NCBI RefSeq assembly: GCF_965641715.1
Contig: NZ_OZ282453.1
Length of the DNA stretch: 64,000 nucleotides
Origin: Escherichia coli
GTDB lineage: Bacteria; Pseudomonadota; Gammaproteobacteria; Enterobacterales; Enterobacteriaceae
Reading direction: 5' to 3' (one strand)
A model generated the notes under the pieces. It was not told the origin of the DNA and searched no databases. It saw only the letters and a list, made by a program, of their open reading frames with translations. How positions within the stretch are numbered: the stretch's first letter is position 1; each line of letters starts with the position of its first letter. The position numbers and the translations under genes are program-made. This document shows positions 1-5,734 of the stretch, piece after piece.

Positions 1-596
1 TAGGGGTAACCTGTAGGGATGTACCACCCACCTTAAAATAAAGGGGTAAAATCGCTTAGAATGCGTTACAGAGCGTCTGAGAAGCCATATTCACAGATTT
101 TACTAAAACCTCAGACTTCTAAGTGGTCTTTTTAACAGGAGGGTTCTTTCTCATGTATCACCCTCTCTTCCCGCCAAGTAAGCTACACAGACCTAGAGAA
201 TATGCCTTCACAGCATCTATATCAGGTCAGATTTAGAGGTCTTGATAGAATCTTCAAAGGTACTTGACAGATAACTATGAAGTTGTTAGGAAGGGGTGTT
301 TAACGGGGGAAGAGATACGATATAACCCGAAGGGGAGAGTATCATCTTAACAGTGATTGTAAGAGTAAAACTGAAAAGATACTTAACAGAACTACCAAGA
401 GGGAGCGATAAGACCAGAGGTAGTGACCTGTTAAACAGTTCGTTTCAAAGCTCTTAAGAGTCTGTTAAGTAAGGTCATGTGAACAATCATATCATTTTGT
501 CAATGCTTTTGTCTTTGACCTAAATCAATAAAATGTATCGTTTGATGTGCTTTTAAACAAAATAGTTAAAAATCTTTTTAGAGGGGCGCTTCGCTT

Positions 597-1265
597 GTGT
601 CACATCCAATAATCCATATCGGTCGTTATCATGGTGGTTCTGATGACTGGCGTACACCGTATCGTCTATTTCATAACCTGCATCGTGAGTATAGCTTCAG
701 TCTAGATGGCGCTGCAACTGAGCATGACGCATTGTTGCCACGGTTCACCGATGATATAAACCGTCAATCATGGGTTGGTGAACGGGTCTTCGTTAACCCG
801 CCGTTTAGCATGGCTGAACAGTTCCTCGCAAAAGCCCCTGAAGCTGATGTGTGTGTATGTCTGGTTCCGCACAGGTCAAAGACAACTTACTGGCTTCGGT
901 GTGTATATACAAACCCCTTCCTGCATGAGATTCGAACATTACACCGAGCGGTTAAATACCTTCCACCAGCAGGAAAGAGAGGTGTTGTAGCGCGTTCACC
1001 ATTTGCAAGCTGTGTTTTGATATACAGGAACACACCCCGTAAACCGAAGGTTGAAATTACCCAGACAATCTATTGTGGCGACACAATGCTTTTACTTGCC
1101 GTGGTTAATAGGGGTGGTTTACGTGGAAGACCTCATATACACGATGCACAGACGCTTGACAGGTTGATTAAAATGCATGACCAAGGGCAATCCGTCAAGA
1201 GTATCGCAGAATCGCTAAGAATGCCTCTAAGCACCACTTACAGGATTGTTCAAAGGTTGAGCTAA
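597..1265 (+). CDS. Phage Dam-family DNA N6-adenine methyltransferase with C-terminal HTH-like segment
   Basis: GTG start with GAGGGG RBS about 11 nt upstream; WRTP...GERVFVNPPFS motif typical of phage Dam-type MTases; C-terminal QSVKSIAESLRMPLSTTYRIVQRL resembles an HTH. Confidence 0.6.
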   Translation: MSHPIIHIGRYHGGSDDWRTPYRLFHNLHREYSFSLDGAATEHDALLPRFTDDINRQSWVGERVFVNPPFSMAEQFLAKAPEADVCVCLVPHRSKTTYWLRCVYTNPFLHEIRTLHRAVKYLPPAGKRGVVARSPFASCVLIYRNTPRKPKVEITQTIYCGDTMLLLAVVNRGGLRGRPHIHDAQTLDRLIKMHDQGQSVKSIAESLRMPLSTTYRIVQRLS

Positions 1266-1300
1266 AATTCTCATATAGAGCACTGATTATGAGAATGTTA

Positions 1301-1333
1301 AAGAGGCGATTTCCCCTTTCTGGGGTTATTCGC
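1301..1333 (+). repeat. About 30-nt element containing CCCCTTTCTGGGG hairpin followed by T-run (copy 1); possible MTase terminator
   Basis: aagaggcgatttcccctttctggggttattcgcttttt; a near copy occurs at 1521..1552. Confidence 0.4.
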
Positions 1334-1520
1334 TTTTTACTGGAAGGGTTATTTTACAGAGGTTTTTCAAACCCCCTCAATAATAAAAAACGAGCAACAA
1401 ACGAAGAGCGAGAAATAAAATATTGAGACTGGTGAACGGGGTCTGTAAAGATTGTTTAAGAAGTCGGTTTAGGGATTGGTAGATGATTCGGATGAAGCAT
1501 CCTCATAACAATACCAATTA

Positions 1521-1552
1521 GAAGGTGGCTCTCCCTTTCTGGGGATATCGCC
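1521..1552 (+). repeat. About 30-nt element containing CCCTTTCTGGGG hairpin (copy 2)
   Basis: gaaggtggctctccctttctggggatatcgcc, similar to 1301..1333. Confidence 0.4.
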
Positions 1553-1575
1553 TTGTATCTTAGTGAGTCCAGGAA

Positions 1576-1760
1576 GTTCTCTGTGAAGGGACTTGTCAGT
1601 CCTTTATATTGGCTAATTACAACTTATTGAAAAATAAGCATTTTTAGAAATCACTGTTAAGGTTACAGAGTTCTCTGTGAAGAGACTCGTCAGCTCTCTA
1701 TATTGGCTAATTACAACTCATTGAAAAATAAGCATTTTTAGAAATTGCTGTCAGAGAGGT
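1576..1760. repeat. Tandem direct repeat, 2 copies of about 94 bp (about 90 percent identical)
   Basis: gttctctgtgaag(g/a)gact(t/c)gtcag...tattggctaattacaac...ttgaaaaataagcatttttagaaat occurs at 1576 and again at 1670. Confidence 0.8.
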
Positions 1761-1833
1761 GAGTACTTGATAGATACAGCTTTCCGGTTCTGTCAAGATA
1801 TTTTTTAATAGATAGCACAAAATGCTAAAGATA

Positions 1834-1863
1834 CCCCTATACCATCACGTACAGGGGGTTTTG
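1834..1863 (+). terminator. Hairpin plus T-run (intrinsic terminator-like), between repeat region and minus-strand small genes
   Basis: cccctataccatcacgtacaggggg followed by ttttg. Confidence 0.35.
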
Positions 1864-1871
1864 AAGGGAGT

Positions 1872-2060
1872 TTAACGGGGTTCTGTGTGGTTATCTGTTC
1901 TGGTCCTGTCCTTGAGGTCAAATGACCATTCACGACCAAACAATCTGAACACGATAAACACCCGAACGATGAAATAGCGGAGCAGAAGACCTGCAATCAG
2001 CCCAACACCTCCACCAGCCCATACATCAGGTGACCCCAGCTCAGGAGGGAGATTTACCAT
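1872..2060 (-). CDS. Small predicted membrane protein (62 aa), unknown function
   Basis: Internal ATG with AGGAA RBS; single hydrophobic helix WAGGGVGLIAGLLLRYFIVRVFIVF; start overlaps the stop of the upstream 34-aa ORF (TAATG). Confidence 0.35.
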   Translation of the reverse strand: MVNLPPELGSPDVWAGGGVGLIAGLLLRYFIVRVFIVFRLFGREWSFDLKDRTRTDNHTEPR

Positions 2061-2164
2061 TAAATTTCCTGTGTGCAATGCAATACCATGTGACATACAT
2101 AGTTGATTCGGTTAGTTGGGCTTGTACCAACCCCTATCGAATAAACCTCATAGCCACGCTTCAT
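2060..2164 (-). CDS. Small ORF (34 aa) translationally coupled to the 62-aa membrane protein
   Basis: ATG preceded by GAGGGGGAA RBS immediately downstream of a minus-strand promoter; MKRGYEVYSIGVGTSPTNRINYVCHMVLHCTQEI. Confidence 0.25.
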   Translation of the reverse strand: MKRGYEVYSIGVGTSPTNRINYVCHMVLHCTQEI

Positions 2165-2186
2165 ATTTCCCCCTCTCTCATAAACC

Positions 2187-2216
2187 ATTATACCACAAAT
2201 GTTACGAAATTGTTAA
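2187..2216 (-). promoter_or_regulatory. Sigma70-like promoter (TTAACA, 18 nt spacer, TATAAT) on minus strand
   Basis: Reverse complement reads ttaacaatttcgtaacatttgtggtataat; drives the 34-aa and 62-aa ORFs. Confidence 0.45.
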
Positions 2217-2222
2217 AAATAC

Positions 2223-2251
2223 TTGACATTAGTCTTTGAAAATGCTAGTAT
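2223..2251 (+). promoter_or_regulatory. Sigma70-like promoter (TTGACA, 17 nt spacer, TAGTAT) on plus strand
   Basis: ttgacattagtctttgaaaatgctagtat, about 50 nt upstream of the 2300 operon; back to back with the minus-strand promoter. Confidence 0.45.
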
Positions 2252-2299
2252 TGTATATAAGTTAACAGAGAATTAACAATTATAAGGACTAGCTTATGA

Positions 2300-2857
2300 A
2301 TGAACGACAGAGAATTTAGAGCGATGCTTCAGGCATCGAGACAACGTAACAGATACAACTCCTACAGCTACACAGACACCCCCACCAGCTACGAACTACC
2401 CAAGCTCACCAGAGCAGAACGCAAAGGCCTTGATGAATTAATTCGTAGCATTACGCCACGAGATAGATTTATGCCAACCAGAAAGAGCACGAAGAACACT
2501 ATTAAAAATTATCTGGCTAACTTTGACAGCTACGAACAATTACCAAGTAAGCTTGATGATGTAATTATCGGATTCTGTAGAAGTGAAGGTCACCCGAAAT
2601 ACAACAAAAAACTATTTTATCTTCTAAAGAATCTTGACGAAATTAACTCAGCCACCGTGACAAATCATCTTCAGCGTCAAGCAACCAGACTTAGCCATGA
2701 ATTACCAAGCGATAAATATTGCGCTTTGCTTGCTGTAATGTGCGCAAAGTTAATTGGTGTTGTTGAGCATCATATTGCCGTTGGAAATATTGAGCCAATG
2801 GAAAACGAGCAACCAGATTTCGAGTTTGACCCGTATTTAGTTACAGAGGAATTTTAA
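2300..2857 (+). CDS. Hypothetical phage protein (185 aa)
   Basis: ORF with AAGGA RBS; first gene of a coupled operon; no recognisable motif. Confidence 0.5.
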   Translation: MNDREFRAMLQASRQRNRYNSYSYTDTPTSYELPKLTRAERKGLDELIRSITPRDRFMPTRKSTKNTIKNYLANFDSYEQLPSKLDDVIIGFCRSEGHPKYNKKLFYLLKNLDEINSATVTNHLQRQATRLSHELPSDKYCALLAVMCAKLIGVVEHHIAVGNIEPMENEQPDFEFDPYLVTEEF

Positions 2858-3136
2858 ATGAAGAAACACACTTTGACCCGTATTTCAGAAGAAGCCTTTC
2901 ACGAGCTTACCCGAATTAAACAGACAACTAACCTCCCTCATCAAACTGTTATGCAGCTTGCAATTGCTAAAGAGGTTACTGAGTCGGATTTACTGAAATA
3001 TCCAGTCTCTAAAGGTCGTAAGCACATCCGAATTACTCAGGACGCTTTAGATACTTTGAAGGCACTTAACAACTTTAAAATTGATATCGCCCGACTATTG
3101 AGTATTAAGATTCACAAGTTAGCAATGGGGGTTTAA
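2858..3136 (+). CDS. Hypothetical protein (92 aa), possible ribbon-helix-helix DNA-binding fold
   Basis: ATG directly after upstream stop; N-terminal HTLTRISEEAFHELTRIKQ...QTVMQLAIAKEV fits a strand-helix-helix pattern (inference). Confidence 0.4.
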   Translation: MKKHTLTRISEEAFHELTRIKQTTNLPHQTVMQLAIAKEVTESDLLKYPVSKGRKHIRITQDALDTLKALNNFKIDIARLLSIKIHKLAMGV

Positions 3137-3351
3137 TGCTATGCGTTACCTTTGAATACCACACGGATAAAATGATTCGCTACATCTCCGACCTCCTGAT
3201 TGAAGGAAACGGATTCGGTGACATCCATAACTCAAAAGATATTTTCATTAAAGCCATTGGCCCAAATGAAGTACTGAAAACAGCAGTTAAACCGGAATGG
3301 TTTGAGCGTCACAAGATTGAATTAGGTTATTGGGGTGAGGAGGTTTTATGA
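3136..3351 (+). CDS. Hypothetical protein (71 aa)
   Basis: TAATG overlap with upstream gene; no recognisable motif. Confidence 0.4.
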   Translation: MLCVTFEYHTDKMIRYISDLLIEGNGFGDIHNSKDIFIKAIGPNEVLKTAVKPEWFERHKIELGYWGEEVL

Positions 3352-3635
3352 AACCTTGGCATGAAGATGTTAGACGATATTTTACAGAACACCTTATCTA
3401 TGATGAATCCAGTGATTCCCTGTGCTGGTCTGATGGAGAGTCAGTCACGATAAACACCGACGACTACGGCAACAAAACATTTAATATAGGCCGATATACT
3501 TTCTACGTGAAATATGTTGTCTGGTTCCTTTATCATGGCTATCAATCCAACAAGCAAATTATCCATCGAAATGGTAACAGAGCCGATACCAGACCAAAAA
3601 ATCTTATGCAAGTCCGAGACTTTAAGAGAAATTAG
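3348..3635 (+). CDS. Small HNH-family endonuclease (95 aa)
   Basis: ATGA overlap with upstream gene, GAGGAGG RBS; motif IHRNGNRADTRPKNL resembles the HNH_3-type H-x-NGN-x-D-x-R-x-x-NL signature. Confidence 0.55.
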   Translation: MKPWHEDVRRYFTEHLIYDESSDSLCWSDGESVTINTDDYGNKTFNIGRYTFYVKYVVWFLYHGYQSNKQIIHRNGNRADTRPKNLMQVRDFKRN

Positions 3636-3642
3636 AAAAACA

Positions 3643-3766
3643 GCTTCTCAGACGCTCTCAATCGCATTCTAACGCAAAAAACTATCTTATTTTAGGGTGG
3701 GTAATACCACTGTACAGGCTACCCCTGAAAAAGACTGTTTAGCTCGTTACAGAGCGATTGAGGAGG
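3643..3766. promoter_or_regulatory. Inverted pair of operator-like 10-bp-periodic motifs flanking about 75 bp upstream of the 3792 gene
   Basis: 3643..3672 (minus orientation) reads ttagaatgcgattgagagcgtctgagaagc; 3745..3766 reads cgttacagagcgattgaggagg; both are related to 56..85. Confidence 0.4.
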
Positions 3767-3791
3767 TCTGGTAAAAAGGAGATTTTAAGAA

Positions 3792-4121
3792 ATGAGAGAA
3801 TTAAACTTCCCACTACAGATTTTTATTGATACCGACACCGCCATGATGATTCAGGCTTTCACTGATGTAGGTGTTAGCATTGACTTTGATAAGTTGTTAG
3901 AGTTAATGACTGATAATGCGGAAAGCATCTCTGACTTTATTCAGTCGGTGGAGTTTAACGAGCCTCGAATGATGCTACCAATTAAAGACAGCAACATGAA
4001 AAGATTGGTTATCGAGCAAACGAACAAATTCAGCGTTAGCCCTGAAAAATATCTCAAGGCGGCTATAGCAATTTTGTACGCTGACAATATTTTGGTGACG
4101 GATTCGAAGGTGGTGCATTAA
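3792..4121 (+). CDS. Hypothetical acidic protein (109 aa)
   Basis: AAGGAG RBS; no recognisable motif. Confidence 0.5.
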   Translation: MRELNFPLQIFIDTDTAMMIQAFTDVGVSIDFDKLLELMTDNAESISDFIQSVEFNEPRMMLPIKDSNMKRLVIEQTNKFSVSPEKYLKAAIAILYADNILVTDSKVVH

Positions 4122-4186
4122 TGGAATTGGTGATTATCTGTTTTGTATTGATTGGTATGATTGCAGGTGCATCTATTAAAGTATAA
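4121..4186 (+). CDS. Tiny hydrophobic peptide (21 aa, MELVIICFVLIGMIAGASIKV), translationally coupled
   Basis: ATG overlaps TAA of upstream gene (TAATG); entirely hydrophobic single-helix peptide. Confidence 0.25.
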   Translation: MELVIICFVLIGMIAGASIKV

Positions 4187-4211
4187 ATGTTACCAATCTG
4201 TTAAAAATCTG

Positions 4212-4240
4212 TTGACAAATAACCTTGAGCATGACATAAT
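4212..4240 (+). promoter_or_regulatory. Near-consensus sigma70 promoter (TTGACA, 17 nt spacer, CATAAT)
   Basis: ttgacaaataaccttgagcatgacataat. Confidence 0.55.
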
Positions 4241-4246
4241 TGTATA

Positions 4247-4503
4247 TATATGAGGATAGTCTTCTATCCGAAGTCTATAGGGAGAGCAATTCTCCTTGAA
4301 TTAAAATATTAATCATCTCTACATCAATGATAACTATATTCTGAGTTGGTGAGGTATGTTCTATACCGAACATTCTGAAAGGTGCAATGCTTTTCGTCAT
4401 GGCCTTTCAGTTTAGTCTGAGAGGCTATCTCAAAAAGTGCTTAATCATTCATTCATTGAATCCTTTACAGCTTTGCCCTAATCATGAGTTAGGGCGTTTC
4501 TTT
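4247..4503 (+). ncRNA. Candidate small RNA or structured leader (about 255 nt) from promoter to first intrinsic terminator
   Basis: No ORF of 60 aa or more in about 460 nt; several stable hairpins (4254..4269, 4356..4373); ends at terminator 4475..4503. Confidence 0.3.
4475..4503 (+). terminator. Intrinsic terminator (7-bp GC-containing stem plus T-run)
   Basis: gccctaatcatgagttagggc then gtttcttt. Confidence 0.5.
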
Positions 4504-4574
4504 AAGAGTTTTAAGCAGAGCTTTTAAAGAAAGTTTTTCCTGAAACTTCGTTAACGTTATAAAGCAAACCTTCA

Positions 4575-4610
4575 AAGCCCTTCACAGATTCAATGTTTAG
4601 GGCTTTTCTT
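4575..4610 (+). terminator. Second hairpin plus T-run (terminator-like)
   Basis: aagcccttcacagattcaatgtttagggctt then ttctt. Confidence 0.4.
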
Positions 4611-4707
4611 AATAGAGCATCTTTAATAAATCGTTAAGTCATCTTCTAAGTGTATTGGCGTTGAAGGTGCTCTGTTAAGAAATAAACCACACTTAGAGGA
4701 AGTTATA

Positions 4708-5418
4708 ATGACAAACGATTTATATATTAACGGTAAAAAGGTTGATAGCTTCGGTGACTGGTCGCCACAGACTGAACATCCAGCTATCACTATTCAGCGC
4801 AAAGAACACGATGAAAGAATTGCACTTGAGCAAGAAATCCGAATGTCACCAAAGGTAATTTCCTTTGTGGCTCCTGAGCCTCAAGATATGCCGGATATTT
4901 GCAAAACTGAAGCATTGCTTGAGCTTGAAAAGAAATTTTACCCAGCTTTAAAAGCACAGCGTCTTAAACTAGATGACGCTTACAGTAAAGTTACCCTGAT
5001 GCAATCAGCTATTGAGCCATCAGAATTTGAGATTCAGGATGAATTGTCACAGAAACCATTTGTCTATTACCAATATGAAGACAATGATGGTTTTGGTACT
5101 TTTCCTGAGAATATCCCAGACGTGATTAATAATCCGATGGATGGATATCGAATTGTGAAGATGGTTAAGGCATCAAGAGGTGCTGGTCAGTTTATTTACA
5201 TGACTAATAAGAGCGATGAAGAACTCGCTGAACTTGCTAGACAGAACATCTTGGCATCACGTAACAAGCAGCTTGATAATGTTAAGTTGTATCTCTCAAG
5301 AGAGCTTCAGGCTATGAAAGACCTTGTGAAAGAATATGAAGATGCTAAGAAGATTGCTATGCAAGCCGATATTGAGCAGTTAGTGAAGATTTCTAGCAAA
5401 TATGCAAAGGCTATTTAA
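4708..5418 (+). CDS. Hypothetical phage protein (236 aa), charged with coiled-coil-like C-terminus
   Basis: GAGGAAG RBS; first gene of a co-directional module ending at 8794. Confidence 0.5.
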   Translation: MTNDLYINGKKVDSFGDWSPQTEHPAITIQRKEHDERIALEQEIRMSPKVISFVAPEPQDMPDICKTEALLELEKKFYPALKAQRLKLDDAYSKVTLMQSAIEPSEFEIQDELSQKPFVYYQYEDNDGFGTFPENIPDVINNPMDGYRIVKMVKASRGAGQFIYMTNKSDEELAELARQNILASRNKQLDNVKLYLSRELQAMKDLVKEYEDAKKIAMQADIEQLVKISSKYAKAI

Positions 5419-5437
5419 TTATGATGTGAGGTGAAGA

Positions 5438-5653
5438 ATGATTGATTTAACTGAACGCTATGAAGTTATTAAGTCTGTTTGTGAGAACTTAAAGCTTCAG
5501 ACTAAACCAAAGCTACGAATTAAAAATCAGCATCAAGTTATCACCTCACACAAACCAAAGGTTAGAAGGATTCCTTCATGGTGTATTGACCGTGTTCCTG
5601 CTGATGCTCAATTAATTGGTGAGTCTGGTTCTTACACTTATATCCTTCATTAA
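5438..5653 (+). CDS. Hypothetical phage protein (71 aa)
   Basis: GAGGTGAAG RBS; immediately upstream of the tape-measure-like gene. Confidence 0.45.
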   Translation: MIDLTERYEVIKSVCENLKLQTKPKLRIKNQHQVITSHKPKVRRIPSWCIDRVPADAQLIGESGSYTYILH

Positions 5654-5734
5654 AAATTACAAAGGGGAGAGATTAGCCTTAATTGGTTAGTCTTTCCCTT
5701 TTTCGTATATGAACACTTAAGAGGTGAAACATGA

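Follow-up and report, generated by a model that had tools for sequence, protein, structure and literature searches.

We analysed a divergent promoter region in a 64,000-nucleotide stretch of Escherichia coli DNA (RefSeq assembly GCF_965641715.1, contig NZ_OZ282453.1), referred to below, at its full length, as the window. The first ~10.5 kb of the window are part of an integrated, phage-derived element of 11-13 kb; G+C content is ~40% there versus ~51% in the remainder of the window, and E. coli torCAD lies at 16.4-19 kb (present in 5,420 of 5,426 complete genomes at 95-99.6% identity). Within the element two promoters point away from each other, the leftward one (P_L) toward a gene for a small predicted membrane protein and the rightward one (P_R) toward a series of phage-like genes. 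The main features of the region, in window positions, are the following.

1834..1857, both strands: hairpin terminator, CCCCUGUAC-loop-GUAUAGGGG, with a short T-run on each side.
1872..2060, minus strand: gene for a 62-amino-acid (62-aa) membrane protein, conserved and under purifying selection, with AGGA at 2067-2070 as its Shine-Dalgarno sequence.
2060..2164, minus strand: 34-aa open reading frame (ORF) (MKRGYEV...TQEI), not a conserved gene.
2061..2180, minus strand: 5' leader of the P_L mRNA, made of constant parts and optional hairpin modules, with a length of ~120 nt in the window and 79-231 nt in relatives.
2216..2187, minus strand: P_L, TTAACA-18-TGgTATAAT, 11/12 matches plus the TG extension, putative start near 2180.
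2200..2215, minus strand: operator-like site O1 (TAACA-N6-TAACA), over the P_L -35 and spacer and just upstream of the P_R -35.
2223..2251, plus strand: P_R, TTGACA-17-TGcTAGTAT, 10/12 matches plus the TG extension, putative start near 2258.
2263..2278, plus strand: operator-like site O2 (TAACA-N6-TAACA), at ~+5 to +20 of the P_R transcript.
2300..3136, plus strand: first two genes of the P_R operon (185 aa and 92 aa), the 185-aa product without detectable family.

P_L and P_R are two of the three best sigma-70 matches in a 6-kb scan; the number of promoter-like sites in the region is as such unremarkable (22 against 15 +/- 4.2 expected). Together they span 65 bp, with -35 hexamers that are 6 bp apart here and 6-8 bp apart across loci, and with putative starts ~78 bp apart. 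The initial annotation of this DNA had called two opposite-strand sigma70-like promoters within about 65 bp, and these are not only present but conserved. All 29 homologous loci compared, from Escherichia, Citrobacter, Kluyvera and Salmonella, keep the hexamers, the spacer lengths (18 and 17) and the TG extensions of both promoters, while the flanks vary. The P_R -35, TTGACA, is invariant in 29/29 loci, its -10 reads TAGTAT, TAGGAT or TAAGAT, and the P_L -35 is TTAACA, GTAACA or ATAACA. Most relatives were found by querying with the control region or the small protein (locus L031 was found via the 92-aa protein), so the sample of related loci is biased; a scan of species-representative genomes gave one locus only, in E. 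albertii. As read from the sequence, P_R heads the main operon, which carries the 185-aa and 92-aa genes, an HNH nuclease gene and, later, the tape-measure and Dit-like genes, and P_L would yield a monocistronic mRNA consisting of a modular structured leader and the small membrane protein, with its end, in this lineage, at the hairpin terminator.

P_L and the start of the P_R transcript are overlaid by a repeat, TAACA-N6-TAACA, that occurs three times in the 64 kb against 0.19 occurrences expected. O1 and O2 stand in opposite orientations and flank P_R, at a distance from each other of 63-68 bp across loci. O1 is conserved in place in 29 of 30 related loci, the exception being L030, a remnant disrupted by an insertion sequence (IS) in which the region is gone, and every homologous locus that spans the positions, Salmonella included, has exactly the three copies O1, O2 and O3, the last of which is described below together with a second promoter. 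A switch-like layout, as had been suggested before, is plausible in that these conserved repeats overlap P_L and the start of the rightward transcript. The accompanying statement that no cI/cro-type helix-turn-helix (HTH) repressor lies at the switch was correct.

A single DNA-binding factor could read the TAACA repeats and thereby couple the three promoters P_L, P_R and P2. Such a factor at O1 would collide with RNA polymerase at P_L and would sit at about -45 of P_R and touch it; blocking P_L while contacting P_R would therefore amount to a switch geometry. A possible binder is the 92-aa protein, for which AlphaFold predicts two successive beta-alpha-alpha units (E4-9, H11-24, H28-36 and E55-60, H61-70, H77-89), an arrangement that may represent a tandem ribbon-helix-helix DNA-binding protein; its two halves align weakly with each other. 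Neither the 185-aa nor the 92-aa protein matches an HTH or Cro family, and sequence searches of the 185-, 92- and 236-aa proteins against PHROGs, NCBIfam, PADLOC, Pfam and PDB returned nothing usable.

The small gene leftward of P_L is oriented opposite to all neighbouring genes. Its frame is kept from the same ATG in 15 E. coli homologues, two alleles differ by an in-frame 12-nt indel (62 versus 58 aa), and the pairwise ratio of nonsynonymous to synonymous substitution rates (dN/dS) is 0.08-0.21 at dS of 0.1-1.3. The variable columns of the alignment are distributed 26/8/38 over the three codon positions. The low dN/dS, the in-frame indel and the conserved frame argue that the 62-aa ORF is a real gene under purifying selection, and the initial annotation, which had named conservation in homologous elements as a test of its small ORFs, is upheld for this one. 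The protein family, with 58-63 residues, extends over Escherichia, Citrobacter and Kluyvera, and the gene is also kept in Salmonella; the Salmonella relatives had been considered as a natural control lacking the small gene, and this control was dropped since they retain it. Residues P5, L8, D12, G20, R28, R33 and V37 are invariant in the family and the stretch LLRYFVVRLFVVFRLFGREWSFDLKD is almost so. All 31 related elements examined carry the gene, and in L030 it alone survives the IS insertion. RefSeq annotates the gene in some genomes only and misses it in most of those we looked at.

A single-helix membrane protein had been proposed from the sequence, and two predictions agree with that proposal: the Kyte-Doolittle score reaches 2.2 in the best window of 19 residues, and the AlphaFold model shows one helix, from residue 11 to residue 56, with a predicted local distance difference test (pLDDT) score of ~90 for residues 21-40. 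The helix is predicted to be hydrophobic enough to span the membrane. From the distribution of charges, with an acidic N-terminal segment and a net charge of +4 after the hydrophobic core, we infer an N-out/C-in topology. The protein had no match in PHROGs, NCBIfam, PADLOC, precomputed Pfam domains, a profile search of PDB or a tblastn search of phage genomes.

A 74-aa version of the protein, with its start at 2096, was rejected, since relatives either have the extension closed or offer no ATG for it. A 14-nt stretch of the small ORF (2005-2018) is complementary to positions 2376-2389 in the 185-aa gene; as this match is not conserved in Citrobacter, we treated it as chance. The hairpin downstream of the small gene has T-runs on both sides and is thus probably a bidirectional terminator; it is conserved in the lineage of E. 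coli and Salmonella. At three loci (L005, L007 and L010) its 24 nt are inverted, as an exact reverse complement.

The leader between P_L and the small gene is built from constant parts, namely a 5' purine tract, GGCGUGGCUA, GGUCACAUG-UUUUGCAUUGCACA and then the Shine-Dalgarno sequence. Three of its features are used in what follows.

2072..2083, minus strand: invariant leader block, 5'-UUGCAUUGCACA-3', ending 2 nt before the Shine-Dalgarno sequence and forming the longest invariant run in the leader.
2090..2157, minus strand: leader hairpin with stem P1 (GUGGC...GUCAC) and the optional module A in its loop, from a comparison of 20 sequences.
2169..2179, minus strand: purine tract GAGAGAGGGGG at the 5' end of the leader, with predicted pairing to CUCCCUCC at 2044-2051.

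The 34-aa ORF falls within this leader. The initial annotation had combined it with the 62-aa gene into a mini-operon for a peptide and a membrane protein, and had noted that its stop overlaps the start of the 62-aa ORF (TAATG). The overlap is as described, and a stop that overlaps or abuts the main ATG (TAATG, TGAATG or CTAATG) is found in 13 of 14 leader types. The mini-operon does not hold, however, since the start, length, frame and sequence of the upstream ORF all vary. Its equivalents across leader types have 35, 34, 24, 19, 17, 10, 9, 7 or 6 codons and begin with ATG, GTG or TTG at varying places; the Citrobacter version reads a conserved nucleotide block in another frame (MFCIAHRRRI versus MFLHCTQKVH); a 1-nt indel removes the start in many E. 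coli copies; and locus L020 has no upstream ORF at all. Every variant provides the main ORF with a Shine-Dalgarno sequence of its own, so translational coupling is not required. We regard the 34-aa ORF as an accident of the leader and not as a gene, and because it is not conserved the P_L transcript is best described as a monocistronic mRNA with a long structured leader rather than as a two-gene operon.

In most individual minimum-energy folds of the leader, the 5' purine tract pairs with CUCCCUC, located at codons 4-6 of the small ORF, and the predicted duplexes have energies of -10 to -17 kcal/mol in 22 of 22 variants. This pairing is a plausible translational brake on the small ORF. Stem P1 (GUGGCU...GGUCAC) can be paired in 100% of 20 distinct sequences, compared with 18-44% for shifted registers. 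In four of its six pairs the variation is confined to one side (GU/AU/GC and UA/UG), and a direct reading of the sequences gives a seventh pair that changes from A:U to G:C in Citrobacter. Module A, a 51-nt hairpin in the P1 loop, is absent or has its top deleted in some relatives. The fold energy of the whole leader was not significant (z = -1.4), no cis-antisense promoter was found inside it at 9/12 matches or better, and the prediction of a long-range duplex between the leader and the P_R mRNA was discarded, as it yields meaningless full-length duplexes.

Another module, B, was seen in loci L003, L024, L025, L027-L029 and L031. It is a structured insert of ~100 nt with a T-run, lies between the invariant block and the Shine-Dalgarno sequence, and is absent here, where the equivalent point is between positions 2066 and 2072 of the window. 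With modules A and B, the leader looks like a hot spot for hairpin modules.

The third TAACA repeat belongs to a second promoter module about 2 kb rightward, which has a leader of its own.

4188..4240, plus strand: P2 module, with O3 (4188-4203, minus strand) followed by P2, TTGACA-17-TGa-CATAAT (4212..4240).
4247..4610, plus strand: structured leader or RNA from P2, with predicted hairpins, followed by the 236-aa gene at 4708.

P2 is the only other near-consensus rightward promoter, and O3, which is conserved in all loci that reach that far, lies immediately upstream of its -35. The region 4166-4276 aligns as a paralogue of 2180-2290, and the promoter module has therefore been duplicated. The P2 leader, of ~250-370 nt, consists of a 5' hairpin, an invariant GGUGCAAUGCU block and a strong hairpin whose sequence varies among relatives, and its indel pattern is unlike that of a coding region. 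Terminator-like hairpins occur at 4474-4496 (T1) and ~4573-4610, with a long perfect hairpin between them; T1 is absent in four loci, L026-L029. The second promoter module and its leader together occupy 4166-4707, and the conserved, highly structured non-coding leader could be a regulatory RNA or an attenuator.

The two leaders share a short complementarity. The sequence GUGCAAUGC (4382-4390), invariant in the P2 leader, is perfectly complementary to GCAUUGCAC, which forms the core of the 2072..2083 block in the leader of the small gene. Read on one strand, the window contains GTGCAATGC at two positions and no more (2073 and 4382), and every locus spanning both sites likewise has exactly two copies, on the same strand and at the same positions. 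Some 9-nt complementarity between two such leaders would be expected by chance in a single genome with an estimated probability of ~0.15; what gives this one weight is that each partner is the most conserved stretch of its own leader. Since the two transcripts come from opposite strands, RNA-RNA pairing is one possible reading of the 9-mers. Alternatively, they could be a direct DNA repeat bound by a protein. No covariation is possible, because both sites are invariant.

We read the locus as the regulatory hub of the 11-13 kb integrative phage-derived element, in which divergent promoters, a monocistronic mRNA for a small protein and a switch coupled by TAACA repeats are combined, and we would put the probability of this reading at roughly 55%. 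The small protein would be the product of the maintenance state, from a moron-like cassette with its own promoter and terminator; it would be made while the element is integrated and act on an incoming phage or on a host membrane partner. The invariant cytoplasmic tail FGREWSFDLKD suggests that this partner is specific. Such a partner would fit phage exclusion or modulation of a host membrane protein better than unspecific membrane damage, and a moron-type membrane protein is, by analogy with known cassettes, the most likely identity of the 62-aa product. The leader may tune translation of the small protein by pairing its purine tract with codons 4-6, and perhaps also by pairing its invariant block with the P2 RNA.

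Two known kinds of arrangement come close to this reading. Like the lambdoid immunity region (PRM/PR, cI, cro), the locus has back-to-back sigma-70 promoters with starts ~80 bp apart (~82 bp for lambda PRM/PR, a putative 78 bp here), repeated operator-like sites that overlap the promoters, one arm that is the main lytic or early operon, and a short leftward transcript that is expected to be on in the integrated state. Unlike the lambdoid region, its leftward gene encodes a 62-aa membrane protein and no DNA-binding repressor, there is no cI or cro homologue, the repeats are direct (TAACA-N6-TAACA) rather than three dyad-symmetric 17-mer operators lying between the promoters, and a third repeat serves a paralogous promoter 2 kb away. 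Prophage morons, such as the HK97 gp15 superinfection-exclusion cassette, share with the P_L unit a small inner-membrane protein with its own promoter and terminator inside a phage-derived element, and a predicted transcription independent of the neighbouring operon. The present cassette differs in being fixed in the control region of every family member instead of optional, in its long conserved leader and in having no sequence similarity to known exclusion proteins.

Several observations weigh against our interpretation. The candidate binder of the TAACA repeats, the 92-aa protein, has a mean pLDDT of 49 and no family match. The complementarity between the leaders is short, at 9 nt, and could equally be a direct repeat acting at the DNA level. 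The duplex of the purine tract has a median z of only -1.8 relative to shuffled sequences and is not statistically established. For stem P1, the column-based count contains no changes on both sides and shuffle controls were not exceeded, so the stem is consistent with the data but not proven. The terminator hairpin is missing, and the downstream sequence different, in the Citrobacter/Kluyvera-type loci L016-L023 and in E. coli L013. The exclusion role is proposed by analogy, the protein matching nothing in Pfam, PHROGs, NCBIfam, PADLOC, PDB or 50,697 phage genomes. Finally, a membrane protein expressed from a strong constitutive promoter could also be a toxin that is held in check post-transcriptionally.

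This last point leads to the alternative that survives best, although we consider it unlikely: a type-I-like toxin-antitoxin module that stabilises the element, with the 62-aa protein as a membrane toxin, its translation limited by the leader, and the P2 RNA as an antitoxin acting in trans. The P2 RNA would pair with the invariant leader block beside the ribosome-binding site, much as in IstR-1/tisB and OrzO/zorO. With trans type I systems (tisB/istR-1, zorO/orzO, shoB/ohsC) the locus has in common a small hydrophobic protein, here with one hydrophobic helix and a charged tail; a long structured 5' untranslated region whose 5' end is able to pair with the start region; a non-conserved upstream ORF reminiscent of tisA; and a candidate small RNA complementary to the untranslated region. 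Toxins of this type are usually hydrophobic membrane proteins of fewer than 60 aa, and the present family has 58-63. The conserved complementarity joins the two most conserved blocks of the leaders and, in short leaders, ends 12 nt before the AUG, and the layout of the P2 RNA (an exposed block, hairpins, a terminator) resembles that of a small RNA. Set against this, described trans type I pairs have 18-30 nt of complementarity and only 9 nt are available here; the gene of the candidate RNA lies 2 kb off inside the main operon and not beside the toxin gene; and leaders with module B place the target ~110 nt from the AUG. The promoter is strong and near-consensus and looks constitutive rather than stress-controlled, a strongly conserved cytoplasmic tail is unusual for a generic pore-former, and the search for a cis-antisense promoter in the leader was negative.

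The same complementarity can be turned around, so that the leftward RNA, which occupies the position of lambdoid cI, is itself the repressor and the membrane protein a second function of the transcript. The invariant block would then pair with the P2 leader and force transcription to stop at the hairpins that precede the 236-aa gene and the tape-measure and Dit-like genes, as P4 CI RNA or P1 c4 RNA do in their systems. No protein repressor is encoded at the switch, and P4 and P1/P7 provide the precedent of small integrative phage-related elements without a classical repressor at the switch whose leader RNAs carry blocks of conserved complementarity, one block lying upstream of terminators. Here too the complementary block of the P2 leader lies upstream of two terminator-like hairpins, conservation is higher in the nucleotide blocks of the leader than at synonymous positions in the ORF, where dS rises to 1.3, and the 9-mer is found exactly twice per element, at constant positions in every locus spanning both. 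We nevertheless judge the proposal improbable. The match is limited to 9 nt, its two invariant sites allow no test by covariation, and the chance expectation given above applies to it; P_R itself would be left uncontrolled; and terminator T1 is missing in L026-L029. In P4 and P1, moreover, regulator and targets share a transcript and the complementarity is longer and repeated, whereas the transcripts here come from opposite strands, and there is neither sequence similarity nor an Rfam match.

A more far-reaching version, which we hold to be comparably doubtful, would see in the element family a phage satellite or minimal prophage of a new type, with RNA taking most of its lysis-lysogeny-type decision. 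The strongly transcribed leftward mRNA would have two functions, in that pairing of the leaders via GCAUUGCAC would gate the tape-measure/Dit-like block and the membrane protein would exclude or sense a helper phage; a single TAACA factor would couple the three promoters. Least credible, and largely refuted by the comparison, is a coupled two-gene operon whose 34-aa peptide would act together with the 62-aa protein or regulate it: the stop adjoining the main ATG in 13/14 leader types and the good Shine-Dalgarno sequence of the upstream ORF in the window (GGGGGAAATATG) speak for it, but the peptide is conserved in neither sequence, length (6-35 aa), start codon nor frame, its start is deleted by a 1-nt indel in many relatives, L020 lacks it, and the main ORF never depends on it for a Shine-Dalgarno sequence.

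Divergent control promoters with a small accessory membrane protein are an already known kind of arrangement. What is new here is the design of the operators, the modular leader, the duplicated promoter module and the paired invariant RNA blocks. The element encodes a handful of proteins, among them a tape-measure and a Dit-like tail protein, together with kilobases of conserved non-coding sequence, and an understanding of its switch would reveal how so reduced an element remains silent when it has no classical repressor. The small membrane protein may prove to be a new exclusion factor or toxin, and the paired blocks offer a case of possible RNA cross-talk between two leaders. If the small protein were merely another moron the result would be ordinary, yet it would still correct the annotation, given that RefSeq misses the gene in most genomes looked at.

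The right end of the element is formed by its integrase gene.

8814..10457, minus strand: large serine recombinase, 547 aa, abutting wrbA and agp.

Related elements are found in ~420 of 5,426 complete E. coli genomes (~8%), at 73-95% identity, and beyond E. coli in Citrobacter, Kluyvera, E. albertii and Salmonella. Gene order is constant across relatives: integrase, Dit-like, tape-measure, ~70-aa and ~236-aa genes, then a gap of ~500 bp, followed by several small proteins (in many cases with an HNH nuclease), the 92-aa and 185-aa genes, the divergent promoters and the ~60-aa gene. Beyond the last of these come 1-3 kb without annotated genes and then a variable end, which holds a small resolvase, AP2/HNH or a methyltransferase. 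The integrase varies between a large serine recombinase and a tyrosine integrase, and the insertion sites are yecE, near yciI, wrbA, and a position beside a molybdopterin-oxidoreductase/ferric-reductase gene pair, apparently msrPQ. Both yecE and wrbA are also listed as integration sites in the literature on Shiga toxin (Stx) phages. Comparison of positions 8000-10457 of the window with loci L016 and L022 gives one element core with alternative recombinases at several chromosomal sites.

The element family appears to be undescribed, and no account of it was found in the literature searched. A megablast search of positions 1500-2900 and tblastn searches of the 62-aa and 185-aa proteins, each against 50,697 phage genomes, found nothing, and an Rfam scan of positions 1..8000 at E <= 1 gave no RNA family. 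The 264-aa 'baseplate/Dit-like' protein has a further match, to endolysin PHROGs (E = 2e-22).

No gene is annotated in the left 1.7-3 kb of the family (2622-5598 of L029, 6457-8128 of L001), and in the L001 segment there is no long ORF either. The window starts ~1.4 kb inside the region equivalent to L029 2622-5598. A DNA N6-adenine methyltransferase is encoded at 597-1265 of the window, and its C-terminal segment resembles a resolvase-type helix-turn-helix (...GRPHIHDAQTLDRLIKMHDQGQSVKSIAESLRMPLSTTYRIVQRLS); in its place, other members carry a small resolvase/invertase or an AP2/HNH protein at this variable end.

Positions 1575-1751 hold two tandem 94-nt direct repeats (83 nt aligned, 90% identical), each bearing a minus-strand promoter-like site and the motif ACAGAGAA. 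This motif is present 7 times in the window, where 1.6 occurrences would be expected, and 4 of the copies lie within 1577-2314. The repeats resemble P_R weakly; the idea that they are inverted copies of P_R and its leader was rejected, as MAFFT identity was only ~50%, and blastn-short found no such inverted copy in any homologue.

Sampling of O111 strains (O111:H- 11128 and several isolates of O111:H8) gave matches to the small gene and the terminator region only. The one O111 locus examined in detail, L030 (E. coli O111:H- 11128, 5094-6643), has IS1203 just upstream of the small gene and lambdoid prophage genes beyond. TTRACAG motifs cluster at the left end of the window, where 6 lie within 132-468, and 21 of 38 fall in the first 10 kb.

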